Shown: positions 5,781-19,781 of the stretch, one piece after another
Numbering within the stretch: the first letter of the stretch is position 1
How the letters are laid out: each line of letters opens with the position of its first letter
Source of the DNA: an uncultured Gammaproteobacteria bacterium
Lineage (GTDB): Bacteria > Patescibacteriota > Microgenomatia > UBA8517
Assembly (NCBI GenBank): GCA_964583685.1
Contig: CAZOVJ010000001.1
Location: 196,033-260,032, forward strand
Direction of reading: 5' to 3'
Length of the DNA: 64,000 nt
Translations under genes and position numbers: made by a program
Notes under the pieces: generated by a model
Database searches by the model: none
What the model was told of the DNA's origin: nothing
What the model saw: only the letters and a program-made list of their open reading frames with translations

Positions 5781-6875
5781 CTAGATAAATCTCACCTGCA
5801 TGCCTTCGCGCACTGGAGTTGTTAGAGAGACCTCTTGGCCCGGATATTTAGCTCCCCTTCCCCAGATTTTTGCACTTTTTTTATTTTCGGCAAATTCGCT
5901 GCCTATTTTTTCAGCAACATTTCTTAAAGTCTGCCTTTTTTTCATAATAATTGGCTTTTCAAGACTTAATTTTTCCTGAGCTTTTACTGGATAGATACGG
6001 ATTAACAATAATCTTTTCCATATTTCCTGCCTAAGTTTTTCTAGTCCGATATTTTGTCGGGCACTGATAAAAAGGGTGCCACGGCCATGAATTGGGGGGT
6101 AACGGTGCTCTTTCGGAGCTAAATCTGTTTTATTAACTACAAAAATAGCTGGAATATAAACCCGGTTTGGACTGAGAGCATCAATTAATCTGTCGATTGT
6201 TAGCTTTTCTTTTATAGTTATTTCAGCGTTTTTGATACCCAATTCAGCGGCCACTGCTTTTATTGTTTCCTTGTCTAATCTCTGCTTGATATTTGAATGG
6301 ATTACTATTCCCCCAAGAGCTTTTTTCTCAAGACTAACTCGGGGGGGCTGGCAATTGATTCTAATACCGCTTTTCCGAAAGGCTGATTTTATCCTTTTAA
6401 AAGCTTGCTTTTTATTGATTTCGCTTATTAAGATAATTAAATCAGCTGCCCTGACAACCGAAAGAACTTCCCTCCCCTTCCCTTTTCCTTCTTCTGCTCC
6501 CTCAATAAGACCGGGAACATCGAGAATTTGAATTTTTGCATCCTTGTATTCCATCATGCCTGGGACTACGGTTAAGGTGGTAAAGGCATAAGGAGCAATC
6601 TTACTTTTGGCATTGGTCAGCTTGTTTAAAAGGGTTGATTTGCCTACCGAGGGGAAACCAACTAGGACAACGGTTGCATCACCTTGTTTTTTGATTGCAT
6701 AACTCCGCCGACTGGCGGATCCACCACCCTTTTTAGATAATCTCTCTAACTGCTTTGCTCGAAGTTTTGAAAGCTTGGCGCGGAGTTTGCCGACATGGTG
6801 CTCGGTCGCCTTGTGATAGGGTGTCTTTCTGATTTCTTCTGTAATTGTCTGAATTTGTTCCTCTATTGAGCTCAT
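5781..6875 (-). CDS. DRG-family (developmentally regulated GTP-binding protein-like) OBG-class GTPase with C-terminal TGS domain
   Basis: 364 aa; N-terminal 'KTPYHKATEHHVGKLRAKLSKLR' DRG hallmark, G1 'GFPSVGKSTLL', 'PYAFTTL', 'DVPGLIEGAEEGKGKG'; distinct from the canonical Obg at 33343-34284. Confidence 0.75.
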   Translation of the reverse strand: MSSIEEQIQTITEEIRKTPYHKATEHHVGKLRAKLSKLRAKQLERLSKKGGGSASRRSYAIKKQGDATVVLVGFPSVGKSTLLNKLTNAKSKIAPYAFTTLTVVPGMMEYKDAKIQILDVPGLIEGAEEGKGKGREVLSVVRAADLIILISEINKKQAFKRIKSAFRKSGIRINCQPPRVSLEKKALGGIVIHSNIKQRLDKETIKAVAAELGIKNAEITIKEKLTIDRLIDALSPNRVYIPAIFVVNKTDLAPKEHRYPPIHGRGTLFISARQNIGLEKLRQEIWKRLLLIRIYPVKAQEKLSLEKPIIMKKRQTLRNVAEKIGSEFAENKKSAKIWGRGAKYPGQEVSLTTPVREGMQVRFI

Positions 6876-6917
6876 TTAGTGTATAATTGTACAGGAAATA
6901 AGGGTTAAGAGACTAGA

Positions 6918-6989
6918 GCACCCGTAGCTTAATGGATAGAGCAGGTGGCTTCGGACCATCTGATGGGGGTTCGACTCCCTCCGGGTGCA
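6918..6989 (+). tRNA. tRNA-Arg(TCG)
   Basis: Acceptor GCACCCG/CGGGTGC, anticodon loop CTTCGGA, T-arm GGGGGTTCGACTCCCTC. Confidence 0.75.
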
Positions 6990-7175
6990 CAGAAATTCAG
7001 AACGTAAAATTTTGCTGGGCGCAGGTGCGGGTTGCGCCAGTAAATAATGTGGTGGAATCGGCGAAAAATCCAGCCGTTTATTTTCTTAACAAAAAAAGAA
7101 TAACGCAAAAATTTTCGGCGCTTATTTAAATTTATATCGTGAAAAGTGAAAAGCAAGTAATAAATTGCTAAAATA

Positions 7176-7811
7176 GTGAAAATAGGAATAGAAAATCCAC
7201 TCTCATTATCTCCCGAAGATTTGGGCCAGCGAGTTCTGGATAGAGACTTTTTTGATAGGAGGACAAAGGAAGTGGCCAGAGGTTTGCTTGGAAAGATTTT
7301 GGTAAGAAAAATAGGAGACAAAATTATTGCCGGGAAAATAGTGGAAGTGGAAGCATATATAGGAGAACACGACCCCGCGGCCCACGTTTCTGCAGGGCGC
7401 ACTGGAAGAACAGAAGTCCTGTACGACGAACCAGGCAATGCATACATCTTTAAAATCCGTGGGCATCATTGTCTCAATGCAGTAGCTGAAGAAGAAAATA
7501 GTCCGGGCTGCGTTCTGATAAGGGCAATTGAGCCTATATTGGGAATCAATGAAATGAAAAAGCTCAGAGGTCTCCATGTCAAAAGAAATAGAGATTTAAC
7601 CAATGGGCCCGGGAAATTGTGTCAAGCTTTTGACATAGATATGGATTTATATGGAGCCGATCTTACTAGCGGAGATTCGTTATTATTTATTGCTGAAAAT
7701 GAGGAGGGTGAAGACTTCAAGATAGAAACTACCAAAAGAATCGGAATAACAAAAGCTTCTGATTGGGAATTACGCTATACTATAAAAGGCAATAAGTTCG
7801 TTTCAAAATGA
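7176..7811 (+). CDS. mpg: DNA-3-methyladenine glycosylase (Mpg/AAG family)
   Basis: 211 aa; 'FFDRRTKEVARGLLGKIL...GKIVEVEAYIGEHDPAAH...PGNAYI' matches methylpurine-DNA glycosylase fold. Confidence 0.8.
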   Translation: MKIGIENPLSLSPEDLGQRVLDRDFFDRRTKEVARGLLGKILVRKIGDKIIAGKIVEVEAYIGEHDPAAHVSAGRTGRTEVLYDEPGNAYIFKIRGHHCLNAVAEEENSPGCVLIRAIEPILGINEMKKLRGLHVKRNRDLTNGPGKLCQAFDIDMDLYGADLTSGDSLLFIAENEEGEDFKIETTKRIGITKASDWELRYTIKGNKFVSK

Positions 7812-8353
7812 AAAAGATTATCTTTGTCACCACAAACGAAAATAAAATAAGAGAAGCATCGGAAATACTTGGTATAAAAGTAGAACCTAAAGATCTTAAA
7901 GTAGATGAGGTTCAAACACTCGACCCCTTAGAATGTGTTAAGAAAAAAGCAGAAATTGCCTATAGACTTGCCAGAATTCCAATTCTAGTTGAGGATACTA
8001 GCTTATTTTTTAGCGCCTGGGGAAAACTTCCTGGTGTATTTATTGATTACTTTATGAAATCTCTTGGTAATCAGGGAATTCTGAAATTACTTTTCGACGA
8101 AAGCAATAGGTCAGCGACAGCTCAGACAAGTTTATGTTACTTCAACGGCAAGAAAAACGTCGTCACAACCGGCAAAGTAAGGGGCAAAATTGCCGAAAAA
8201 ATGCGAGGCGATAAAGGGTTTGGTTGGGATCCAATTTTCATTCCCCGGGGCAAAAATAAGACTTTTGCGGAGATGACCAATCTTGAGAAAAATAGCTTAT
8301 CTATGAGAAAAATAGCTTTAGAAGAGCTAAAAGCTAAACTTGCTGTTCGTTAG
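7808..8353 (+). CDS. rdgB: non-canonical purine NTP pyrophosphatase (RdgB/HAM1 family)
   Basis: 181 aa; 'IIFVTTNENKIREASEILG' N-terminus and 'GFGWDPIF' motif; 4-bp overlap with mpg. Confidence 0.85.
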   Translation: MKKIIFVTTNENKIREASEILGIKVEPKDLKVDEVQTLDPLECVKKKAEIAYRLARIPILVEDTSLFFSAWGKLPGVFIDYFMKSLGNQGILKLLFDESNRSATAQTSLCYFNGKKNVVTTGKVRGKIAEKMRGDKGFGWDPIFIPRGKNKTFAEMTNLEKNSLSMRKIALEELKAKLAVR

Positions 8354-8600
8354 CTTTCTCTATCTTTTTTAAAGCCAGTGCTTCTCTAAACGACATTGAC
8401 TTTCTCATGTGTGAAAACTTGTCATTCTCCCAGGTGACATATACATATTCTTCTTCATCAACAATTTCATCTATTACTCCACGGTCTCCCGGTTCGACTA
8501 TTAAAGGATAGTCGTCGAACTGTTCGACAGTCCAGGAAAGGAGTTTTGTAGCTTCCACTTCATCACCGGGTTCTAATGATGGTCTGCGTTCGCTAGTCAT
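8334..8600 (-). CDS. hypothetical acidic small protein
   Basis: 88 aa ORF translationally coupled (8-bp overlap) to the downstream tmk gene. Confidence 0.4.
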   Translation of the reverse strand: MTSERRPSLEPGDEVEATKLLSWTVEQFDDYPLIVEPGDRGVIDEIVDEEEYVYVTWENDKFSHMRKSMSFREALALKKIEKANEQQV

Positions 8601-9303
8601 AATATTTAACCACCTCCTCTAATACAATTTCTCTGGCCTCTTCATAAACTTCTGGTATTTCTTTCTCCCTTGCGTCAATGACCCTGATTCTGTCCGGGAA
8701 CAGCTGAATTAATCTGTGGTATTGTAGGGCTACTTTCACCTGAGTATCCATAACTTCGTATTTGGAAAGCACCTTAACATCTTTGGCTCTTTCCATCGCC
8801 AGTGCAGGGTCATTATCAATAAGCAAGGTCAAATTTGGAAAAGATAGTAATCCCCGATCAACCAGATTTTGGTTTAGCCCTGTCAAGAATTTCAAGGTAG
8901 GCTCCTCACCACCAAAGTATTTGGCCAATCTTACACTTTGATAAGCAAACCAACTGTCAAGAAAACGATCGGTAATAACAACTACTCCCTTTTGCAGTTT
9001 TGGCAAAATGAGCTTTTCATAATTATCTAATCGAGCTGTCAGGAGAAGGAAGGCCTCGGATATGTGAGTCAAATTCTCACCTCTTTCAAAATGTTCCTGA
9101 AATCTGTCCCAAGGGGAAAGTCCGTAAGGCGGGTCGCGAGTTAAAGCGACATCAAAACCTCTATCAAGAAGGTCCTTTCTTAACCAACGAGCAACAGGAG
9201 TTTTCCCTGTGAAGTCTATACCCTCTAGGCTTGTAAACATCCCAAATTTTCTCTCTGTGTCCGGCATTTCAGCTAATATATACTTAGGCACCCTATAAGT
9301 CAA
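8593..9303 (-). CDS. tmk: thymidylate kinase-like (dTMP kinase)
   Basis: 236 aa; P-loop 'FTSLEGIDFTGKT' and 'LTRDP' dTMP-kinase motifs. Confidence 0.6.
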   Translation of the reverse strand: MTYRVPKYILAEMPDTERKFGMFTSLEGIDFTGKTPVARWLRKDLLDRGFDVALTRDPPYGLSPWDRFQEHFERGENLTHISEAFLLLTARLDNYEKLILPKLQKGVVVITDRFLDSWFAYQSVRLAKYFGGEEPTLKFLTGLNQNLVDRGLLSFPNLTLLIDNDPALAMERAKDVKVLSKYEVMDTQVKVALQYHRLIQLFPDRIRVIDAREKEIPEVYEEAREIVLEEVVKYYD

Positions 9304-9590
9304 ATTAAGCCTGCAGTTTCTTTTTCTATTATATTTTAGTAAAATATACTTACCGTTAGGTAAAAAGTTTGCAAAGCAAACTTATCTGCTCGGCAAAGCC
9401 GAGTCAATTGCACGCGAAGATAATTAGCGGAGACTTCGCTCAGCGGGACCGGAGCTATACAATATGGTGGCTGCCGCTATTCAGCCGCCATACCTTTGAA
9501 GTAAGTTCGAATTTCGCAATATAACGTGCACTTTATTTTTTCTCTTGAATATTTTTTTCTTTATATGGTATTTTGTTATAAGGTCTTCTT
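9304..9590. ncRNA. candidate structured RNA / leader in GC-enriched tmk-pyrG divergent intergenic region (unclassified)
   Basis: 287 nt non-coding, much more GC-rich than flanks; perfect hairpin CTCGGC-AAA-GCCGAG and 10-bp stem ATGGTGGCTG...CAGCCGCCAT; no family identified. Confidence 0.25.
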
Positions 9591-11219
9591 GTGAAATTTA
9601 TTTTTATTAGTGGTGGCGTACTCTCGGGGTTGGGCAAGGGAATTGTCAGTGCTTCTATCGGTCTTCTTCTGAAATCTCAGGGTTTCAAAGTAACGGCAAT
9701 CAAAATTGATCCCTATGTTAGCGTTGATGCTGGAACAATGCGGCCGGCTGAGCACGGAGAGGTATTTGTTACCAAGGATGGAGGCGAACTTGATCAAGAC
9801 ATTGGCCATTATGAAAGATTTTTAAACATCGAGCTTAGCCGGGATAACAATATTACTACCGGCAAGGTCTTTCAAGATGTCATTGATAAAGAACGGCATT
9901 TTTTCTATCAAGGGAGAGATGCGGAGATGATTCCCGATGTTATCAATCAAATTAAAAAGATGATTTATAAACCGTCCAAGGGTTTTGATTTTAGTGTTGT
10001 GGAAATCGGTGGCACGACCGGAGATTTGGAAAACATGCCCTTTCTTCACGCGGCCCGAGAGATAGGTAGAGAATTCCCGGCTGTATATATTATGGTGACC
10101 TACCTCCCTTTTCTCAAGAATATTGGCGAACTGAAAACAAAACCCACCCAGCATGCAGTTGCCCGGCTTCGGGAGATAGGAATTGTGCCTGACTTTATTG
10201 TTACTAGGAATGAGATTCCCATTGATAAGCCCCGAATTGAAACAATTGCTAAAAGGTGTTTTATTTCAGAAGAGAACATTATTGATGATCCGGATATTGA
10301 GATTGTTTATAAAGTTCCCTTGATATTTGAGGAGAAAAAATTTGCCGATAAAATTTTGAGAAAATTTGCTATTAAAAAAACTGGAAAGAAGGATCTTCGG
10401 GATTGGAAACGCTTTGTCAGTCGTTTGGAAAAACCTAAAAAAGAAATCCATCTTGCTTTGGTTGGTAAGTATGTTACCCATGGCAGCAACAAACATAAAG
10501 ATGTTTATATTTCGGTTTTGGAAGCCATCAATCATGCGGCCGCTTTTCATGGTTTAAAAGTGAAGATTCTTGCCATTGATTCAGAAAAAATTGAAAAATT
10601 AAGCCAGAAAAAATTGTCTGAAAGACTTAAAGAGGTTGAAGGTATTGTTGTACCCCAGGGTTGGGGTAGCCGAGGGGTGGAAGGGAAAATTCGGGCCATT
10701 CGTTATGCCAGAGAAAATAAAATTCCCTATCTCGGACTCTGTTTTGGTATGCAGATGGCAACAATTGAATTTGCCAGGAATGTTCTCGGCTTAAAATCTG
10801 CTAATTCTACTGAAGTTAATCCAAGAACAAAACATCAGGTCATTCATGTTATGCCTAAACAGAAAGAATATCTGGCTAAAAAACAATACGGCGGGACGAT
10901 TAGAGTTGGCGCCTGGCCCTGCAAACTAAAAAAAGGGACGAAACTGGAAGCTGTTTATAAAAAATTTGGCCAACGGTCAAGCTTGATTTATGAACGACAT
11001 AGGCACCGCTATGAGTTCAATAATAAATACAAGAAGAATTTTGAGAAATTTGGCTTTGTCTTTTCCGGTACCTCGCCTGATGGAAAACTGGTTGAGGCAA
11101 TAGAGCTTAAAGATCACCCTTTCTTTATCGCTACCCAATTTCATCCAGAATATCTGAGCCGACCTTTAGTTCCCCACCCTATTTTTCTCTCTTTTCTGGA
11201 ATCCATGCTTAGCGGTTGA
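9591..11219 (+). CDS. pyrG: CTP synthase
   Basis: 542 aa; 'MKFIFISGGVLSGLGKGI' N-terminus, glutamine amidotransferase 'GLCFGMQ' active site. Confidence 0.95.
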   Translation: MKFIFISGGVLSGLGKGIVSASIGLLLKSQGFKVTAIKIDPYVSVDAGTMRPAEHGEVFVTKDGGELDQDIGHYERFLNIELSRDNNITTGKVFQDVIDKERHFFYQGRDAEMIPDVINQIKKMIYKPSKGFDFSVVEIGGTTGDLENMPFLHAAREIGREFPAVYIMVTYLPFLKNIGELKTKPTQHAVARLREIGIVPDFIVTRNEIPIDKPRIETIAKRCFISEENIIDDPDIEIVYKVPLIFEEKKFADKILRKFAIKKTGKKDLRDWKRFVSRLEKPKKEIHLALVGKYVTHGSNKHKDVYISVLEAINHAAAFHGLKVKILAIDSEKIEKLSQKKLSERLKEVEGIVVPQGWGSRGVEGKIRAIRYARENKIPYLGLCFGMQMATIEFARNVLGLKSANSTEVNPRTKHQVIHVMPKQKEYLAKKQYGGTIRVGAWPCKLKKGTKLEAVYKKFGQRSSLIYERHRHRYEFNNKYKKNFEKFGFVFSGTSPDGKLVEAIELKDHPFFIATQFHPEYLSRPLVPHPIFLSFLESMLSG

Positions 11220-11263
11220 TTTGGTTTGATACTGAACCCCAAAAAATAGTAAAATATACATAA

Positions 11264-11351
11264 GCCGAGGTGCTGGAATGGTAGACAGGACAGACTTAAA
11301 ATCTGTTGTCGCAATTGCGACGTGAGGGTTCGACTCCCTCCCTCGGCACCA
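11264..11351 (+). tRNA. tRNA-Leu(TAA)
   Basis: Acceptor GCCGAGG/CCTCGGC, anticodon stem ACAGA/TCTGT loop CTTAAAA, long variable arm, encoded CCA. Confidence 0.8.
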
Positions 11352-11427
11352 CGGGGTGTAGCTCAGTTGGCAGAGTGCGCGCTTTGGGAGCGTGAGGTCC
11401 CCGGTTCGAGTCCGGGCACCCCGACCA
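11352..11427 (+). tRNA. tRNA-Pro(TGG)
   Basis: Acceptor CGGGGTG/CACCCCG, anticodon loop TTTGGGA, T-arm CCCCGGTTCGAGTCCGGG, encoded CCA; abuts the paralogue operon (5 bp away). Confidence 0.8.
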
Positions 11428-11431
11428 AATT

Positions 11432-12322
11432 TCAAGAGCCAATTTCTACTGCAATACGAAATCCTACTTCTGGGTACGATTGGTTGGCATATTTCAAAAG
11501 GACGTGGGCAGCACCACCGTCGTATAAATTGCCAACCATGAAACGTAGAGAACTACGGACCTCATGGCGACATTCAGTATTTGTCCATTCGTAGGTGTTA
11601 GTTTTTCCCCAACCAAAACGATTGGCAAGTAGATTCCACGGCAAAATATCCAACAAGTGAACATCACCTTTTACCAATCCTACATCAGAAAGAAATTTCT
11701 GTTTGGCTTCATCAATTGCTGCCTTAATGTCGTTCCAAGAAACATTGAATCTGTCATCAATTCCCAGTCTTTTCCCAAAATTAGTTTCTTGGTATTTCTC
11801 TCCATGTGATGGCTTTTCTAATGTCTCAACCGCAAGCCACTGACCAGGCCGCCTAGGAAAGTCAGCCCAGTCCCCTTGTACCTTTTCCCAGTAGAACATT
11901 TCCAAGTTTCTGTAAATCTGGTATTTATTCTTTTCACTCTCTGACAAACTCTCAAACCGCTTCCAGTTAGGGTATTTTGCAGTAAGCCTTCTTAGATATT
12001 GCGTTAGGTTTTCTCTTCCTAATTGGTAAGGGTCAAGGTCTAAAGGAGGTAAGAAAACAAGAGTAAAGCCTTCCTCTTCTAGTTTCTGCTTTACTTCTTG
12101 GGTAATTTCAGTTGGAAGAGGAGGAATGGTAAAATTTACACCCAGTACCCGCTTCCAAGCTTCTTGTTCTACCATAATTAAGTCTGCCTCAAACTCTTTT
12201 AATTCTGGCTCTCTTGTCTCTCTTTCTGCTAAAAGCTCTTCTAACTTCCTTGAAGCAGGAATCTCTCTTTTCCCGAAAGGATCAAGTCTTGCTACTTCAT
12301 CTGGTGGTATTTTTTCAGCCAT
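11432..12322 (-). CDS. paralogue A1 of a 4-member unknown-function family (C-terminal GFR[IV]AVEIGS)
   Basis: 296 aa; shares N-terminal 'EK..PD.VA.LDPF...IPASR.LEELLA', central 'RLG..DRFNVSW' and 'WNLLANR.GWGKTN..EWTNTE' blocks with ORFs at 12335, 13031, 15664. Confidence 0.7.
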   Translation of the reverse strand: MAEKIPPDEVARLDPFGKREIPASRKLEELLAERETREPELKEFEADLIMVEQEAWKRVLGVNFTIPPLPTEITQEVKQKLEEEGFTLVFLPPLDLDPYQLGRENLTQYLRRLTAKYPNWKRFESLSESEKNKYQIYRNLEMFYWEKVQGDWADFPRRPGQWLAVETLEKPSHGEKYQETNFGKRLGIDDRFNVSWNDIKAAIDEAKQKFLSDVGLVKGDVHLLDILPWNLLANRFGWGKTNTYEWTNTECRHEVRSSLRFMVGNLYDGGAAHVLLKYANQSYPEVGFRIAVEIGS

Positions 12323-12334
12323 AAATCCAATATT

Positions 12335-13018
12335 TCAAGAACCAATTTCTACTGCAACACGAAATCCTATACTAGCAAAGGAATAATTAGATATTTTCCC
12401 AGAAACGTAGGCAGCACCACCACTCTCAAAATCACCAATAGTAAGATGCAAAAGACGTCGTGGATATCTGGTATTGGTCCATTCGGAAGAATTAGTCTTT
12501 CCCCACCCTTCGCGATTTGCCAACAAGTTCCATTCAAGTGCTTCCAGAAGTCTAATGTCTGCTTGGCCAGAAAGACCTATTTCAGAAAGAATACTTTGCT
12601 TCCTATCCTCTATTGCCCTGTTTACATCGTCCCCGGAAACATTAAATCTATCAGAAAACCCTAGTCTGTTTGTCAATGGTGAATGGGGGTATTTCCCCCC
12701 CCCAGCTCCTTTTTCCCGAAGTGCTAAAGCATCTAATTCAAGGGCTGGTATGAATCGTAACTCAAGACCCAAGTTTTTCAGATTAGCTATCACTTCAGGT
12801 GTTATGCCCTCTGGTAGACGTTTAACTTCAATCTCACTTCCCAAAACCTTTAGCCATTCATTTCTCTCGAAGGTAATGATTTCTGACATCTGGGCTTCTG
12901 GTTCTCCTGTTCCTCTTCCTGCTGCCAAAAGCTCTTCTAGCTCCCTTGAAGCAGGGATTCCTCTCACCTTGAAAGGATCAAGGCTTGCTACTTTATCTGG
13001 TGATAGTTTTTCAGTCAT
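12335..13018 (-). CDS. paralogue A2 (short form lacking the central 'AKYPNWK...QWLAVETLEKP' segment)
   Basis: 227 aa; N-terminal half almost identical to A4 and first ~30 codons identical in nucleotide sequence to A3. Confidence 0.65.
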   Translation of the reverse strand: MTEKLSPDKVASLDPFKVRGIPASRELEELLAAGRGTGEPEAQMSEIITFERNEWLKVLGSEIEVKRLPEGITPEVIANLKNLGLELRFIPALELDALALREKGAGGGKYPHSPLTNRLGFSDRFNVSGDDVNRAIEDRKQSILSEIGLSGQADIRLLEALEWNLLANREGWGKTNSSEWTNTRYPRRLLHLTIGDFESGGAAYVSGKISNYSFASIGFRVAVEIGS

Positions 13019-13030
13019 AAATCCAATATT

Positions 13031-13861
13031 TCAAGAACTAATTTCTACTGTAATGCGAAACCCAACGCGGCCTCGACAAAGCCAATGGAGAAAGGTAGTA
13101 TCTCCGATGGCAGAGCAGCCAGCGACGAGACGAGAAGGGATAGCAGATGATACACGGTGTTCTGTATTGGTCCACTCATAAGTATCGGTTCCGCTCCACC
13201 CTTCACGATTCGCCAGCAAATTCCATTCTAAAACATTCAAAAATCTAACATTACTTAGCCCCAGTCCCATATCAAGAAGGAACTTAGATTTAGCTTTCTC
13301 TATAGCCGTTTCAACGTCATACCAAGAAACATTGAACCTGTTATCAAATCCCAATCTTCGGTCAAATGCAGTTTTTTGGTATTTTTCGTCTTTATTTGGT
13401 GGTGGAAGAGTCTCAACTGCAGCCCAAGAATGGGGCAAGGTTGGAAAATTAATATAACCGTTCTTTACCTTTCTCCAAAACCATTTTCTTAAGTTTCTAC
13501 TCCAGTTAGGGTATTTTGCAGTAAGCCTTCTTAGATATTGCGTTATGCTTTCTTTTTCTAATTGGTGAGGTTCAAGGTCTAAAGATGGTAAGAAGACAAG
13601 AGTAAAGCCTTCCTCTTCTAGTCTCTGCTTTACCTCTTGGGTAATTTCAGTTGGAGGAGAAGGAATGTTCAAATCTACTCCCAGGACCCGCTTCCAAACT
13701 TCTTGCTCTACCTTAATTAAGTCTGCCTCAAACTCTCTTAATTCTAGCTCACTAGGTTTATTTTCAGCTAAAAGCTCTTCTAACTCCCTTGAAGCAGGGA
13801 TTCCTCTCACCTTGAAAGGATCAAGGCTTGCTACTTTATCTGGTGATAGTTTTTCAGTCAT
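13031..13861 (-). CDS. paralogue A3
   Basis: 276 aa; N-terminus like A2, middle like A1 ('ELREFEADLIKVEQEVWKRVLGV...TEITQEVKQ'), divergent C-terminus ending GFRITVEISS. Confidence 0.65.
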   Translation of the reverse strand: MTEKLSPDKVASLDPFKVRGIPASRELEELLAENKPSELELREFEADLIKVEQEVWKRVLGVDLNIPSPPTEITQEVKQRLEEEGFTLVFLPSLDLEPHQLEKESITQYLRRLTAKYPNWSRNLRKWFWRKVKNGYINFPTLPHSWAAVETLPPPNKDEKYQKTAFDRRLGFDNRFNVSWYDVETAIEKAKSKFLLDMGLGLSNVRFLNVLEWNLLANREGWSGTDTYEWTNTEHRVSSAIPSRLVAGCSAIGDTTFLHWLCRGRVGFRITVEISS

Positions 13862-13871
13862 ATCAATGTGA

Positions 13872-15674
13872 TTATAATTCTTTAGTAAATTCCCTCAAGA
13901 GCTCAGCTAAGATTTCTGGTAATTGATTTACTTTGTCACAAACTTTGCTCTCGGGTGAATAGGTGTTTTCAATTGCTCGAGCGTGACGAGTGATTCCAAC
14001 ACCAACAACAGTAACACCCATCTGCCGCAACTTTACTAACTCTTCTTGAACCCGATCGGGATTGCTGCTTATGCCATCAGAAAAAACAATGACTGCCTTT
14101 TTAAGTTCACCAGCAGCCAATCTCCTTTGTTTCTCTTGATCGGTATCTTCGCGGATTGCTTCTAAAGATTCATAGTCCCATGTTGCTAAACCTGGAGCGC
14201 TAGCTAGATTCTTAAAGACTTCAATTCGTGTTATTTCCTTAAGTTCAGAAGATAAAGGTTTTAACTCAATCTCAAAATTTCCAAATCCTCTGACTTCACT
14301 TTTAACCCCAAGTTCTACCATCTCTTCCCGATGTGTCTCAGCAAGTTGATGGAAATCTTTAAGTGCTTCAAGGAAAAGAATCACACAGTGACGCTCTTCG
14401 ACAAGTTTTTCTCTTGGCATTTCCATTGAACAGGAAAGATCACAAACTAGAGTAACCTCAAATCCACCTGGAGCAACTACTTCAACCGGCCTTTTTTGGT
14501 AATCCAGCCAAACAGGAGAATCGGAAATTCCCACATCGGCATCTAATTTCGCTTGAGATAAAAGTCCGGGGTCGATAACCGCTCCTTCTCTCCGGCGCGC
14601 CCTGAGCCGTCTTTTATACTCAATCCTCCGACTAATAACCTTTTCAAAAACTTTCCTTAAATATTCTATATAAGGCTTAATGGTTATATACTCTCCATAA
14701 TATCCTTGAATGTCTTCCCAGGACACTCCGTGTTCAAGCTCGTAGGCACGGCGGTCAAGCTCTTCTGGTCCGGCCCCGCGAGCAACTTGATCTTCAAATT
14801 CTCTAATTAACTCTTCTTGGAGCTCACCCGCCATAGGATGGGGCAAGCGATTTTCTTCCTTTTCATACTCTTGACGAAAGCCTTCTTCATTAGGAGCTAA
14901 TTTAAGCTTTCCTTTACTTTTCTCTACCTCTCCTTCGCCTTCTCCTCTAACTTCGACTTCCTCCCCTTCCTTTTCTTGTTTTTTCTCTCCTTGTTTTTTC
15001 CTTTCTTTAAGGTCCTCTTGGAACAGCTCTTCAAAAATTGGTTCAATGAAAAGCCTAATTGCTTTAAGCCGAATGGCAGGCTCAACCCCGGGCTGAGCAA
15101 TCAATTCAAGCAGGTTCTTTCCTTTGATATCCTTCAACCCTTCTATCTCTTGCCTTACTTGCGTATCAATTCTAACTTTTTCTTCTGGCAACATTGCCTC
15201 GCGAAGAATAGCGTGAGCGAACTGAAGATGACGGGGGTGTTGGGTGTAATCGGTTTCTGGGAAAAGACGCTGGCGATATAAATTCCTGATGGTCTCACGG
15301 TGAACGGGCGCTCTATTACCTAGAGTTCTATTAATTAAAGTGTCCTGAAGGCAATTGTGTAAGATTTGATAGCGGAATCCTAAGATCTCTCTTCGATCAA
15401 ATTCCTTTCGGTAAAGTGAGGGAGAGCGGCGGAATTCTCGTAATTCCTCAAGTTCATGAAGGGTGGCGGACATTGCTTGAGAACGACTAAATCCTTTATC
15501 AATAAAAAACTGAGGATCATAAAAAATTGTTCCGGTTTCGAGATCGAATCCCCACTGATTACCTGGCACAATTTGTAAACCAGTAACTTGAGCATAACCG
15601 GCCAGTAACGATTGTTCTTGTGCAAAAAAGTCTTCAGCTTCCTCTCTTTTTCGTCCTTTTTGTTCAGTTGACAT
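13872..15674 (-). CDS. VWA (von Willebrand factor A, MIDAS) domain protein with unknown N-terminal domain and acidic/basic low-complexity linker
   Basis: 600 aa; C-terminal 'FEVTLVCDLSCSME' (DxSxS MIDAS) and 'VIVFSDGISSNPD' VWA motifs; 11-bp overlap with upstream paralogue A4. Confidence 0.75.
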   Translation of the reverse strand: MSTEQKGRKREEAEDFFAQEQSLLAGYAQVTGLQIVPGNQWGFDLETGTIFYDPQFFIDKGFSRSQAMSATLHELEELREFRRSPSLYRKEFDRREILGFRYQILHNCLQDTLINRTLGNRAPVHRETIRNLYRQRLFPETDYTQHPRHLQFAHAILREAMLPEEKVRIDTQVRQEIEGLKDIKGKNLLELIAQPGVEPAIRLKAIRLFIEPIFEELFQEDLKERKKQGEKKQEKEGEEVEVRGEGEGEVEKSKGKLKLAPNEEGFRQEYEKEENRLPHPMAGELQEELIREFEDQVARGAGPEELDRRAYELEHGVSWEDIQGYYGEYITIKPYIEYLRKVFEKVISRRIEYKRRLRARRREGAVIDPGLLSQAKLDADVGISDSPVWLDYQKRPVEVVAPGGFEVTLVCDLSCSMEMPREKLVEERHCVILFLEALKDFHQLAETHREEMVELGVKSEVRGFGNFEIELKPLSSELKEITRIEVFKNLASAPGLATWDYESLEAIREDTDQEKQRRLAAGELKKAVIVFSDGISSNPDRVQEELVKLRQMGVTVVGVGITRHARAIENTYSPESKVCDKVNQLPEILAELLREFTKEL

Positions 15675-16554
15675 GTTTAAAAACTACTGCAACACGAAAT
15701 CCGATATTGAAATTGAAAGAGGAGTAATCAGATCTTTCCCAAATAACGTGGGCCGCACCACCGTACTTAAAATTACCAACAAAGAGATGGCAGTTGACGT
15801 CGAGCGGTCGATATTCGGTATTGGTCCATTCGGAAGAATTAGTCTTCCCCCACCCTTCACGATTTGCCAACAAATTCCATTCAAGTGCTTCCAGAAGTCT
15901 AATATCTCCATGGCCGGAAAGACCTATTTCAGAAAGAATACTTTGCTTCGTATTCCATATTGCCCTGGTTACTTCATCCCAGGAAAGGTTGAATCTGTCA
16001 GAAAATCCTAGTCTGTCTGTCAATGGTGAACGGGGAAATTCCCTTCCCCATGCTGGTTTTTCCAGTGTCTCAACAGCCAGCCATTGACCGGGAAGCTCGG
16101 GGAAATCTATATTCCCTACTTGCTTCCAAAACCAATGATGTAAATTTCTAACAACAGTGTGGTTTGATTTTTCTCTCTCATTTAGAGATTCATATGGTTT
16201 CCAGTTAGGGTACTTTTCAGCAAGTTCTTTCAAGAAAACCACAACTCCTTTTTCCCGAAGTGCTAAAGCATCTAAGTCAAGTGCTGGTATGAACCTCAAT
16301 TCAAAACCAAATCTTTCCAAATTTCTCATCACCTCTTGAATTACAAATGATGGTAAAGGTAGAACTTCAACTTCACTTCCCAAAACCTTTAGCCATTCAT
16401 TTCTCTCGAAGGTAATGATTTCTGACATCTGGGCTTCTGGTTCTCCTGTTCCTCTTCCTGCTGCTAAAAGCTCTTCTAATTCTCTTGAAGCAGGAATCCC
16501 TTTCCCAAAAGGATCAAGAAGTGCTACTTTATTTGGTGGTATTTTTTCAGTCAC
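15664..16554 (-). CDS. paralogue A4 (divergent C-terminus ...GFRVAVVFKHVN)
   Basis: 296 aa; start overlaps stop of AAA+ gene by 4 bp (ATGA), end overlaps VWA gene start. Confidence 0.65.
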   Translation of the reverse strand: MTEKIPPNKVALLDPFGKGIPASRELEELLAAGRGTGEPEAQMSEIITFERNEWLKVLGSEVEVLPLPSFVIQEVMRNLERFGFELRFIPALDLDALALREKGVVVFLKELAEKYPNWKPYESLNEREKSNHTVVRNLHHWFWKQVGNIDFPELPGQWLAVETLEKPAWGREFPRSPLTDRLGFSDRFNLSWDEVTRAIWNTKQSILSEIGLSGHGDIRLLEALEWNLLANREGWGKTNSSEWTNTEYRPLDVNCHLFVGNFKYGGAAHVIWERSDYSSFNFNIGFRVAVVFKHVN

Positions 16555-16556
16555 AG

Positions 16557-18305
16557 TTAGACTGTTTCCCCTCGATAGGCTAATAGTTTTTCTTCAGTTA
16601 GGCCAGGAATTCCAAGATCCTTGGCTTTTTTTTTCTTGAAAAACCCATGGAGACAGAAGATTTTAACTAAATTAGACTGGTCTTGGCGTACAGTTTGAGA
16701 TTGAATAAACTCAGAAAGAATAAAATCTTCAAGCGGACGAGTAAAGTCTTCTGCTTTCCAGGCTTTAATAATATCTAATAGATCACCAATTGAAAGAGTG
16801 GCTTTCTCCAAACTGGCCCCAATCCCTCGACTGGCATCGGCCCCTTCTCCCATAAAGTCAGTTTTCTCGCCAGTAAAGACATCTTGGACAAGTTTAGCCG
16901 CTTGACAGAAATTTTTTAAATCTTCTAAGTCCGTTTGACGATTACCTATTCTTAAAGCTCCCTGGCGATCAATTAGTCCCGCCAGTAAAATATCATGAGT
17001 CTCATTGAGAGGTAAATATGTGACTTCTGTTTGCCAATAACGGCGTAAAAAGGCAGGGTCAAGTTTTTCACGGAAATATTTGCGGGAGCGGATATTACCA
17101 GTTGCCATGACAATAAAGCCTTTAGGGATTAGAATTTCCTCATCGCCATTTTCTTGAATGGTAATCGTGTCTCCGGGACGACGAGTCAGAAGATCTTGAA
17201 TTCTACCAATAATCGAATGAGGAACAAGATCTATCTCATCAATCAGAAGAGGTATTCCTTCTCGTAAGGCTTTGGTAGCTGGTCCGTCTTCAAAATGACT
17301 CCCATTAGGTCCCAGTTGAGTTTTGCCAAGAAGATCATAATGGGTTGCATCCTCAGAACCTGAGAAGAGCTTAGGATCTGCACCAAAAAGCTTACGGGAA
17401 ACATAGCGCGCAGTTTCGGTCTTGCCTGTTCCTGTGTGTCCCCAAAGTAGGATTGGCTTACCTTGACGGACTCGGGCAGCAAGTTTGTTTACCAGCTCTT
17501 CGATTTGAGGTGTTTCCACAAATCCCTTTTTAAGTTGCCTTCTAAATTTAGTTAGCTCTCGTCGTTTTTCTTCGACTAGGAGTTCAGGGTTTTTTTCGAG
17601 AGTAATTATTCGTGCTTTTGCGGCAGCGATGCGTTTATTGTTTCGAGATAAAAACTCCTCATCAGGCTGAGAAAATCCTTTCTCCTGCCGCCTTAAAATT
17701 AATTCAGCATTTGCCTGACTTAGGCTTTCTACCCTTTTTCGCAAATACTCAATTTCTCTCGCTTTTTGAATAATCCTCACTTTCTTGGCAAATTTTTCCC
17801 GATAACGTTCAACTACCTGAGGGTAGGCAACAAGAGTCTTAATCTGAGTTTGTACTATGGTTAGTCGATCGCTTAATTCATGGACTAGCTCTTCTGGCTT
17901 CTCTCTTATCGCCTGGACAGCTCCTCCCTCAGCAATGGCTGCCAATTCTTCTTCTAAAGAACGTTTCTCCCCTTTTCTTTGTAATCGTTCCTCCTCTCTT
18001 CGTTCTGCCTCTAGATTTGCAATGGCTGCCAATTCTTCTTGTTCAATGGCTGCCAATTCTTTTTCTAAAGTAGGTTTCTCATTTTTTTCTTGTAACCCTT
18101 CCTGCTCTCTTCGTTCTACCACTAAATCTGCTTCTTGATTAAGGAGGGAGTGTAGATGAACCTGTTCCAAGGCTAAATTTGCCAGTTGGTCACAAAACTC
18201 GGCCACCTGTTCATTAGATAGCTTTTCTCTGCTAGGCACAATCTCGGAATGCTCACGGAGAGTTATATCGGCTATATTTAGAGACACAAGCTTTTTTTCA
18301 ATCAT
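16557..18305 (-). CDS. MoxR-like (AAA_5) AAA+ ATPase with ~290-aa N-terminal coiled-coil/repeat extension
   Basis: 582 aa; Walker A 'LLWGHTGTGKTE', Walker B 'LLIDEIDL', sensor 'VMATGN', Arg-finger region 'LDPAFLRR'; N-terminal heptad-rich region with internal 29-aa repeats. Confidence 0.8.
   Translation of the reverse strand: MIEKKLVSLNIADITLREHSEIVPSREKLSNEQVAEFCDQLANLALEQVHLHSLLNQEADLVVERREQEGLQEKNEKPTLEKELAAIEQEELAAIANLEAERREEERLQRKGEKRSLEEELAAIAEGGAVQAIREKPEELVHELSDRLTIVQTQIKTLVAYPQVVERYREKFAKKVRIIQKAREIEYLRKRVESLSQANAELILRRQEKGFSQPDEEFLSRNNKRIAAAKARIITLEKNPELLVEEKRRELTKFRRQLKKGFVETPQIEELVNKLAARVRQGKPILLWGHTGTGKTETARYVSRKLFGADPKLFSGSEDATHYDLLGKTQLGPNGSHFEDGPATKALREGIPLLIDEIDLVPHSIIGRIQDLLTRRPGDTITIQENGDEEILIPKGFIVMATGNIRSRKYFREKLDPAFLRRYWQTEVTYLPLNETHDILLAGLIDRQGALRIGNRQTDLEDLKNFCQAAKLVQDVFTGEKTDFMGEGADASRGIGASLEKATLSIGDLLDIIKAWKAEDFTRPLEDFILSEFIQSQTVRQDQSNLVKIFCLHGFFKKKKAKDLGIPGLTEEKLLAYRGETV
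17931..18131. repeat. intragenic ~87-bp tandem repeat (about 2.3 copies) within the AAA+ ATPase coiled-coil region
   Basis: 'GCAATGGCTGCCAATTCTTCTT...' recurs at 17931, 18019 and 18046; encodes repeated 'LE[KE]ELAAI...ERREEERLQRKGEKRS' units. Confidence 0.7.
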
Positions 18306-18447
18306 GATGGCTATTTTAGCTGAAAAAGAAACAAAAACGCAATTTTTTCCCGATGAGTTGTCACAATTGTTGTTAAAATTAACAATTTTTGATAAAATTG
18401 GTTTGAACTATTTTATGGATGGCCGATCAACCCAAGATTTGTTTTTA

Positions 18448-18627
18448 GTGGGTGTAGTACAATGGTAGTACACCTTCCTTCCCCGCCTGCAAGTGCTATG
18501 CGGGATTAGTTGAGTGGTATAACAGCTCCCTTCCAAGGAGCAAACACGGGTTCGATTCCCGTATCCCGCTCAGCTAGCATTGCGGGCAGGCAAGGAGGAT
18601 ATGGCAGTTCGATTCTGCTCACCCGCT
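18448..18627 (+). other. split/interrupted tRNA-Gly(TCC)-like gene: 5' half (18448-18482) and 3' half (18592-18627) separated by a 109-bp insert that contains an intact tRNA-Gly
   Basis: Outer halves pair as a full cloverleaf: acceptor GTGGGTG/CACCCGC, D-arm GTAC-AATGGTA-GTAC, anticodon stem CCTTC/GGAGG with loop CTTCC|AA, T-arm GGCAG-TTCGATT-CTGCT; break is between positions 36 and 37. Confidence 0.5.
18500..18573 (+). tRNA. tRNA-Gly(TCC) (inner, intact)
   Basis: Acceptor GCGGGAT/ATCCCGC, anticodon stem GCTCC/GGAGC loop CTTCCAA, T-arm CGGGTTCGATTCCCG. Confidence 0.8.
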
Positions 18628-18631
18628 CACC

Positions 18632-18895
18632 ATGACCAGCGCCGACGACATTCAAAAACAACATGACGTTTTAATTCCGGAGAAAGATGAAAGAACTCAG
18701 GAAGAGATAGGTGAAGAATCAGCTCTTGGTTCATCACCGGTTCCAACCTCAGATGATGATACTGGAGAAGTACTTGAAGGTGTAATTGGCAATGAACCGG
18801 AACCTGGAAAGCCGTTTACTATTGCAAAGGAAGTTGAAAAGGACGAAAAGGCACGGAGAGATGTGCCGAAAGGCTTGGACGAAGAGGGCAAGTAG
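18632..18895 (+). CDS. hypothetical acidic protein
   Basis: 87 aa ORF rich in D/E; no domain recognised. Confidence 0.35.
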   Translation: MTSADDIQKQHDVLIPEKDERTQEEIGEESALGSSPVPTSDDDTGEVLEGVIGNEPEPGKPFTIAKEVEKDEKARRDVPKGLDEEGK

Positions 18896-18912
18896 GATAT
18901 AATTAGAGACTT

Positions 18913-18985
18913 GGTGGTTGTAGCTCAATGGCAGAGCGTCCCCCTGTGGAGGGGAAGGCTGCGGGTTCGAATCCCGTCAACCACC
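18913..18985 (+). tRNA. tRNA-His(GTG) with G(-1)
   Basis: Extra 5' G, acceptor GTGGTTG/CAACCAC, anticodon stem TCCCC/GGGGA loop CTGTGGA, T-arm GCGGGTTCGAATCCCGT, discriminator C. Confidence 0.8.
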
Positions 18986-19020
18986 CATCGTGTTATAATA
19001 TGAATAAATAACTTATTAAT

Positions 19021-19491
19021 ATGGAAGGTGAAAGATTAAGCGACACAGAAAGGAAAAGGAGAGATGGGATAAGACAAGTAACCGGGTTAATTAATGATGC
19101 TGAAGTTGTTTCAAGATTAGTGCGTAGTAGGTCTGATAAATTAGATTTTATTGGACGAACTGGTACAGGATCTGGTTCATACGCACGTCGAGGAATATTA
19201 CTTGCTAAAGTTCCTGAACGAAGCGGACGTAGAGATGGGATAAATTTGGTGGTCACAGAGAACGGTGTTAGGCAGATTATAATCGGTTCTGATTGGGCTA
19301 GCGGCTCTACTGTTGTACATTTCCCAGATGATATAGTTCCTGATAGACTATTCGAGCAAGGAGAGTGTCTCGGAGATGTTAGCGCTGAAGATTTTCGGAA
19401 TAATGTAGTAAATAAATTGAGTAAATTTTCTGAAGAGGGTGGGGATGAGTTACAAAATGTTATGGAACAATTAAGAGATTTGAAAATATAG
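19021..19491 (+). CDS. hypothetical protein
   Basis: 156 aa ORF, no recognisable motif. Confidence 0.4.
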   Translation: MEGERLSDTERKRRDGIRQVTGLINDAEVVSRLVRSRSDKLDFIGRTGTGSGSYARRGILLAKVPERSGRRDGINLVVTENGVRQIIIGSDWASGSTVVHFPDDIVPDRLFEQGECLGDVSAEDFRNNVVNKLSKFSEEGGDELQNVMEQLRDLKI

Positions 19492-19781
19492 GTGAACTTT
19501 GTAAATTTGATTTTCTGCGGGTAAGGAGGAATACGATAGGTTTAGGTGAATCGTTGGCAATACCAATTATATTAGTATTGATCGGAGGGGCAATTTACTT
19601 AACCATAAAGGCTGGGAGACCGAATAAAACAGGTTAAGTAGAAAAGAACATAACCCCTATTAGAAAACACGTCTTGACTGAGCAAGTAAAAATCATAATT
19701 CAAGCAAGCCAAGGCGCTTTTTTATTGGAGAAAATAATTAGCTAAAAACAATTTTTCCTTATCTCCAGAAGTTATGAAATA

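Follow-up and report, generated by a model that had tools for sequence, protein, structure and literature searches.

How did four neighbouring genes come to share stretches of identical nucleotides when they are otherwise strongly diverged, and to what kind of family do they belong? The genes, which we call A1 to A4, lie in a 64-kb stretch (the window, the whole 64,000 nucleotides (nt) analyzed) of the 484,806-bp contig CAZOVJ010000001.1, assembled from a Patescibacterium; all coordinates below are window positions unless a contig is named. All four are complete open reading frames on the minus strand: A1 at 11432-12322 (296 amino acids (aa)), A2 at 12335-13018 (227 aa), A3 at 13031-13861 (276 aa), and A4 at 15664-16554 (296 aa). 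They belong to a single operon that is transcribed in the order AAA_5 ATPase, A4, vWA protein, A3, A2, A1. An initial annotation of this DNA had interpreted the shared tracts as ongoing gene conversion in a variable or diversifying family. To examine the tracts, we built a protein-guided codon alignment of A1 to A4, to which all column numbers refer. We propose that the tracts probably arose through homologous recombination within the array (conversion and/or unequal crossing-over), in an ATPase-linked, Patescibacteria-only family of lectin-like proteins related to the targets of diversity-generating retroelements (DGRs).

Comparing the four genes at the nucleotide level, as the initial annotation had suggested as a check, revealed mosaic blocks and not uniform divergence. 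A2 and A3 had been described as starting identically, and this is the case: they match exactly over 78/78 nt from the ATG (A2 12941-13018, A3 13784-13861) and over 93/95 nt when extended to 95 nt. The identity starts about 1 nt 5' of the ATG, and downstream of the tract it drops to 46%. Within the same tract, A1 and A4 differ from A2 and A3 at 11-24% of nucleotides. A second exact tract of 91-92 nt is shared by A2 (12834-12925) and A4 (16373-16464). For this pair, near-identity had been claimed over the 5' ~180 nt, which holds for the distal ~92 nt (100% over columns 94-190) but not for columns 1-93, where identity is only 81.1%; columns 1-186 together are 90.4% identical (160/177 plus a 3-nt gap). 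The two tracts meet in A2 at 12926-12940, where two substitutions private to A2 (columns 79 and 93) flank 13 nt common to all four genes. Two further features had been missed. The first is a 5' block in which A1 and A3 are 87% identical (columns 1-372; A1 11954-12322, A3 13499-13861), downstream of which the pair is saturated (59% over columns 420-912). The second is a divergent patch between A2 and A4 at about columns 181-240, where sliding windows are 53-67% identical compared to 82-97% in the remainder.

The relationship among the copies changes along the gene. There are 123 informative sites. The initial six (columns 13-63) without exception group A1 with A4 and A2 with A3, and thereafter 108 group A1 with A3 and A2 with A4, so the swap of pairings seen in the initial annotation is real. 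The chance of the first six sites all falling into the minority class is ~1e-7, the supported tree switches once along the gene (near column 63-94), and a Sawyer-type longest-run permutation test was significant for each of A2/A3, A2/A4, and A1/A3 (p <= 2e-4). The proportion of synonymous differences (pS) also changes in steps. Between A2 and A3, pS is 0 in codons 1-26 (18.3 synonymous sites in the tract) and 0.64-0.74 elsewhere; between A2 and A4, it is 0 in codons 32-63 (20 synonymous sites in the tract) and 0.26-0.54 elsewhere; and between A1 and A3, it is 0-0.31 in codons 1-125 and 0.62-0.74 in codons 170-296. Chance falls far short of explaining the mosaic, which is real. The absence of synonymous divergence in the tracts, their sharp borders, and the change of tree along the gene argue for recombination between tandem copies, in agreement with what had first been proposed.

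Trees of two core segments united A1 and A3 with the homologue P0015 (type I) and A2 and A4 with the homologue P0002 (type II). The two types are older than this genome, and the tract shared by A2 and A3 is an exchange between subtypes. Each gene consists of an N-terminal tail of ~33 aa, a conserved core, and a variable C-terminal head, and both exact tracts sit in the conserved 5' part, outside the head. A related locus with two paralogues (L007; 291-1196 and 3081-3977), which flank a vWA gene as A4 and A3 do here, is informative about the tail. The 33-aa N-termini of these paralogues are identical in protein despite 23 synonymous differences in 99 nt; in that locus, strong purifying selection maintains the tail. 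Unlike in L007, the A2/A3 tail is identical even in its nucleotides, which argues for recent exchange rather than constraint.

We propose that the first ~80-95 nt were transferred between A3 and A2 in one or more short conversion tracts, that one or more further tracts carried ~92 nt between A4 and A2, and that the initial ~370 nt of A1 and A3 reflect an older exchange or duplication. The array itself grew by unequal recombination, as shown by its head-to-tail repeat junctions, at which the 12-nt spacers (A2/A1, 12323-12334; A3/A2, 13019-13030) are identical and the 3' ends similar. The effect of the exchange is homogenisation (concerted evolution) of the conserved 5' part of the genes, with no shuffling of the variable heads by the tracts observed.

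Alternatively, A2 might have been chimeric from birth, with one unequal crossing-over or illegitimate duplication having given an A4-type body the 5' end of an A3-type gene and the tracts being the remnants of the junction. The same repeat junctions, spacers, and similar 3' ends speak for such an origin, the type order II-vWA-I-II-I resembles a duplicated II..I unit, and the two A2-private substitutions lie exactly where the tracts meet. However, a simple unequal crossover between A3 and A4 would place a vWA copy behind the chimera, where none is present. Moreover, A2 has two different zero-divergence partners in adjacent segments while its remainder is 18-21% diverged from A4, so at least one tract must be much younger than the split of A2 and A4. 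We consider a chimeric birth of A2 unlikely and infer conversion as the mechanism.

We regard as very improbable that the mosaic was created by collapse or chimeric joins in the short-read metagenome assembly of a repeated array. Using exact-protein look-ups, we found contigs from other datasets that match the arrangement of the window at 100% identity: a 9,283-bp JGI contig (L013, 3300008517; window 6471-15753), a 2,998-bp SPAdes contig from ENA (L014, ERZ25073496; window 10552-13549), and a 4,959-bp JGI contig (L015, 3300028837; window 14683-19641). A2 is unique downstream of the tracts and carries private substitutions at their junction, which a chimeric join would not create, and a collapse would remove copies instead of making a distinct in-frame gene. 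An observation in favour of an assembly problem comes from two other contigs, L008 (JGI 3300011118, 1-1109) and L009 (ENA ERZ27251135, 1-990), which encode a hybrid protein (P0036) with the 5' part of A1 and the 3' part of A3. In both, the 3' end of A2 and the 5' part of A1 are 100% as in the window, and the switch to A3 occurs in a 27-nt stretch common to A1 and A3. Downstream of the hybrid gene, L008 continues into a start resembling that of A2 and L009 into one resembling that of A3, with each segment again 100% identical to the window, which has the look of graph cycles. The hybrid may represent either real recombinant array variants or de Bruijn graph cycles through the repeats. No change was seen in the C-terminal heads in any of these contigs. 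The strain is also contained in a further dataset, ENA ERZ27237563. The exchange can therefore not be called ongoing, as the initial annotation had it: three other assemblies are 100% identical over the array, and the only variants could be graph cycles.

Finally, selection at the nucleotide level (e.g. on a regulatory or translation-initiation RNA element) is scarcely credible as the reason for the 5' identity: the tracts do start at the start codon and the N-terminal peptide is strongly conserved across the family, but A1 and A4 have the same peptide type with 11-24% nucleotide difference, the L007 paralogues retain the peptide with 23 synonymous changes, the A2/A4 tract lies in a poorly conserved protein segment, and Rfam detected only tRNAs in the window.

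Gene conversion among tandem paralogues is routine, and the finding as stated therefore changes little. The useful part is that the unannotated A1 to A4, for which Pfam, PADLOC, and NCBIfam gave no match, can be identified as stand-alone, multi-copy relatives of DGR-hypermutated, ATPase-linked, lectin-like proteins. A homologue search over 5.8 billion proteins returned only 44 homologues, and every named one is from Patescibacteria. The relatives are 41-59% identical to A1-A4, have the same AAA_5 ATPase neighbour, and share with them a C-terminal module (R..G..S.R..VG.S..GGAA...W..P..S....GFR.AVV). In one of these loci (L005), the 3' end of the gene for P0005 (a protein 49% identical to A4) recurs downstream as a 122-nt repeat, behind which come genes for Avd and a reverse transcriptase (RT). 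All mismatches in this repeat pair (17/17) fall at adenines of the downstream copy, which is a DGR signature. A template/variable repeat pair was likewise found in a Candidatus Shapirobacteria locus (L016; 19/20 mismatches at template adenines) and in six species-representative genomes (L018, L019, L020, L021, L025, and L027; 10/10, 17/21, 13/13, 18/18, 21/21, and 16/17, respectively). Over the eight repeat pairs, there are 10-21 mismatches each, of which 81-100% are at template adenines, and the variable region of these relatives is formed by the last ~40 codons of the gene and corresponds to the C-terminal module given above. Avd and RT genes lie directly downstream of the homologue in 7 out of 16 genome loci and in ~27 out of 52 metagenome loci. 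Judged by homology, the family of A1-A4 is a DGR target family. Its description as variable or diversifying is thus apt in that relatives are bona fide DGR targets, but not for the exchanged tracts, which lie in the conserved 5' part, at the other gene end from the heads.

The family is found only in Patescibacteria (CPR, for candidate phyla radiation); its members work either next to an AAA_5 ATPase or as a fusion with it. In most loci, the AAA_5 gene lies upstream of the homologue or is fused to it, in several a vWA gene precedes the ATPase gene, and the full order vWA, AAA, C-type lectin (CLec), Avd, RT is seen in L019, L020, and L049. Every GTDB-representative locus has one copy of the gene, L007 has two, and the window has four. 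The 3' variable segments of the two L007 paralogues are near-identical in nucleotides and differ only at scattered positions, as would be expected of two targets of one template lying off the 4.3-kb contig. A tail of the form M-x-E-K-...-V-A-x-L-D-P-F-G-x-R-...-L-L is common to the stand-alone proteins A1-A4, P0002, P0004, P0006, P0007, and P0015. These tail-bearing members adjoin the ATPase and vWA genes, and the fused members and the solitary P0034 have no tail. The tail may dock the stand-alone proteins onto the AAA_5/vWA pair and so replace the covalent fusion of their relatives. DGR decay also occurs in the family, as indicated by L036 (6761-7309; also L037 and L046), in which a fused AAA-lectin target lies beside an Avd cut to 62 aa and an RT cut to 124 aa. 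The C-terminus of the L036 target continues beyond GFRLAVV into unrelated residues. In L003 (7983-8966), a 327-aa protein that ends in a similar module, ...GYSGYGALSYG...VGFRPIVEF, is encoded right after the AAA_5 gene, with a Fic-domain gene and another member of the family behind it, which adds one more architecture to the theme. We also observed that L020, L021, L022, L027, and L030 are titled 'uncultured Gammaproteobacteria' or 'Pseudomonadales', yet carry the Patescibacteria-type locus, with RTs (where present) that are 64-69% identical to that of L005. The taxonomic labels of these bins seem doubtful.

The local copies differ in how well they are preserved. A1 and A4 look intact, keeping 38/41 and 40/41 of the near-invariant family residues, respectively. 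A2 looks like a decaying copy in which 13/41 of these residues are missing, all lost through a 72-codon in-frame internal deletion in a type II body that is otherwise close to A4. A3 has lost 16 codons, and its C-terminal head is degenerate and has no GGAA motif. A run of nine G on the minus strand of A2 (12695-12703) is the sole G/C homopolymer of at least 8 nt in the window; it falls exactly on the junction of the 72-codon deletion (GCTGGGGGGGGGAAATACCCCC), is identical in L013 and L014, and may be a slippage-prone site or a deletion scar. The one additional variant of A4 (P0165) differs from A4 merely in the translation of the GTG start.

The segments homologous to the DGR variable region of the relatives are found at 11446-11563 in A1, 12349-12466 in A2, and 15684-15807 in A4 (by mapping to the variable regions of L005 and L016), with a degenerate equivalent at 13045-13156 in A3. 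A 6-nt tandem duplication in the A4 head (TTCAAT TTCAAT on the coding strand, 15706-15717) explains the two extra residues of A4 compared to A1, A2, and the variable regions of the relatives. Between A2 and A4, the proportion of non-synonymous differences (pN) is 0.23 in the head segment (pS 0.27) and 0.09 in the neighbouring core (pS 0.26), a pattern that fits past diversification of the heads, whether a DGR or selection was the cause. Indels and changes at scaffold and third-codon positions now separate the heads as well, and these differences rule out one common current template for the heads of A1, A2, and A4.

We found no sign of a retroelement in the window. With blastn (word size 7), none of the 3' segments of A1-A4 had a further copy in the 64 kb, an adenine-degenerate pattern run on the window matched only the three genes themselves, and when the window was searched by tblastn with the RT and Avd of L005, nothing scored better than E = 1.5. 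None of the best 120 of 7,881 RT homologues came from the 484,806-bp source contig. A DGR acting from within the window is ruled out, given that there is neither a template-like copy (blastn) nor an RT or Avd (tblastn). We infer that A1-A4 are former DGR targets. One could go further and speculate that the retroelement was lost or is kept elsewhere, that the lineage instead has a small set of alternative lectin-like heads, all borne on one type of docking peptide for one AAA_5/vWA machine, and that recombination within the array keeps re-assorting tails, cores, and heads in the population, although we give this little credence. If true, the A1/A3 hybrid P0036 would be a real variant, and the array would represent a retroelement-independent way of diversifying, through paralogues, a family that is otherwise diversified by DGRs.

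The proteins look cytoplasmic and lectin-like. In the AlphaFold model of A4 (pLDDT 91.4, pTM 0.87; residues 1-40 of low confidence), the C-terminal domain likely has a C-type lectin/FGE-sulfatase-like fold. The best Foldseek matches in the PDB were ToxD, PorK, and EgtB, which we take to contain the FGE-sulfatase type of this fold, and a sulfatase-modifying-factor-like phage protein was matched in BFVD (E = 0.026). The homology of A1-A4 to DGR targets is independent of this fold assignment. By analogy, A1-A4 may serve inside the cell as ligand sensors or adaptors, a role that has been proposed for MoxR-linked DGR targets (PMC10907252; PMC7159879).

It is important to point out that several observations weigh against our interpretation. 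With four sequences from one array, conversion after duplication is not separable from a chimeric birth of A2, and 'recent' is meant in a relative sense only, as the tracts are undatable. The three contigs that are identical to the window (L013-L015) may derive from related samples or from a bloom of the same strain. With regard to the lectin-like fold, Pfam (including PF03781) matched none of 45 aligned family members, a profile search of the PDB was also blank, and the Foldseek matches in the PDB are weak (E = 6.7e-4 to 0.2, TM 0.2-0.27). The vWA protein matches Pfam VWA at E = 3e-4 with 21.5 bits, which is under the gathering score of 23.8 bits, and the docking role of the tail is conjecture throughout. 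Lastly, the absence of an RT, Avd, and template repeat holds for the 64-kb window out of the 484,806-bp contig.

The closest known systems are the AAA ATPase-associated CLec DGR targets of CPR bacteria (Paul et al., 2017, as summarised in PMC10907252; CPR DGR clade 2 in PMC8144416). A1-A4 resemble these in homology, in the neighbouring AAA_5 gene, and in the C-terminal module. However, the lectin-like domain is fused to the ATPase in those proteins, whereas here it is encoded by a separate gene with a ~33-aa tail. Nearly all of their loci have one copy, many with a DGR, in contrast to the four copies without RT, Avd, or template within 64 kb in our case, and the heads of A1-A4 are unlike theirs in that they differ by indels and scaffold changes. 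CPR targets have been reported to be without recognisable domains, and intragenic recombination among targets has been suggested (PMC8144416). MoxR-vWA ternary systems (Kaur, Burroughs, Iyer, Aravind, 2020, PMC7159879; Dore et al., 2024, PMC10907252), some of which have DGR-diversified FGS (lectin-fold) domains (PMC7159879), likewise combine a MoxR-like ATPase with a vWA protein and lectin-like putative sensors in one operon. They differ in having a third component, which we did not recognise here: the cluster genes contained no VMAP, iSTAND, FtsH, beta-propeller, or effector domains by Pfam, PADLOC, and NCBIfam. Moreover, the lectin-like domain and the vWA protein are separate here, with no fusion between them, and the hosts of the ternary systems are a multicellular cyanobacterium or proteobacterium rather than a Patescibacterium with a tiny genome.

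As to the process, concerted evolution of bacterial paralogues (tuf genes, rRNA operons, and surface proteins) leaves the same short exact tracts, sharp borders, pS of 0, and segment-specific phylogenies; being a process and not a family, it is set apart from the case of A1-A4 only by the gene family involved. Antigenic variation by cassettes (pilE/pilS, vlsE, and msp2) likewise involves an array of partly similar mosaic copies, but it relies on an expression site and silent cassettes, whereas A1-A4 are all complete open reading frames and the exchange is in their conserved part. The family context is thus known in outline, and what is new is the four-copy, tail-bearing arrangement without a retroelement in the window. 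Together with the decayed L036 and the two-target L007, the window offers three states for comparison (DGR active, decayed, and absent). Such a comparison could help to ask what role ATPase-linked sensors or adhesins play in episymbiotic bacteria and to test whether the conserved tail is what connects these proteins to the ATPase/vWA pair.

The AAA_5 (MoxR-like) ATPase gene (16557-18305, minus strand; 582 aa, with a coiled-coil N-terminus) is the first of the cluster, with A4 directly downstream of it. The ATPase matches Pfam AAA_5 (E = 2e-16) and has Walker A (GHTGTGKT) and Walker B (LLIDE) motifs; the assignment is at the level of AAA_5. The gene for the putative vWA protein (13872-15674, minus strand; 600 aa) lies between A4 and A3, and its start overlaps the end of A4 by 11 nt; A1 to A4 lie 10-12 nt from one another or have one gene between them. 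Gene order in this region is the same in L007 and L010-12. At aa 412-416, the vWA protein carries a MIDAS-type DxSxS motif, and its N-terminal domain contains HELEE (aa 73-77), a sequence that is also present in L010-12, whereas the equivalent protein in L036 (2230-4335) has a canonical HEGGH zinc-peptidase motif. Based on this difference in motif, the N-terminal domain of the local vWA protein may be an inactivated peptidase domain. In the coiled-coil N-terminal region of the ATPase, we observed a tandem duplication (17933-18131) with a period of 111 nt and two 88-nt copies that are 83% identical. Genes for tRNAs flank the six-gene cluster, with Leu and Pro on one side (11264-11427) and Gly and His on the other (18500-18986), and the G+C content of the cluster is slightly elevated, at 0.41-0.43 compared to 0.33-0.40 in the sequence from ~20 kb onward; the cluster may be an island.

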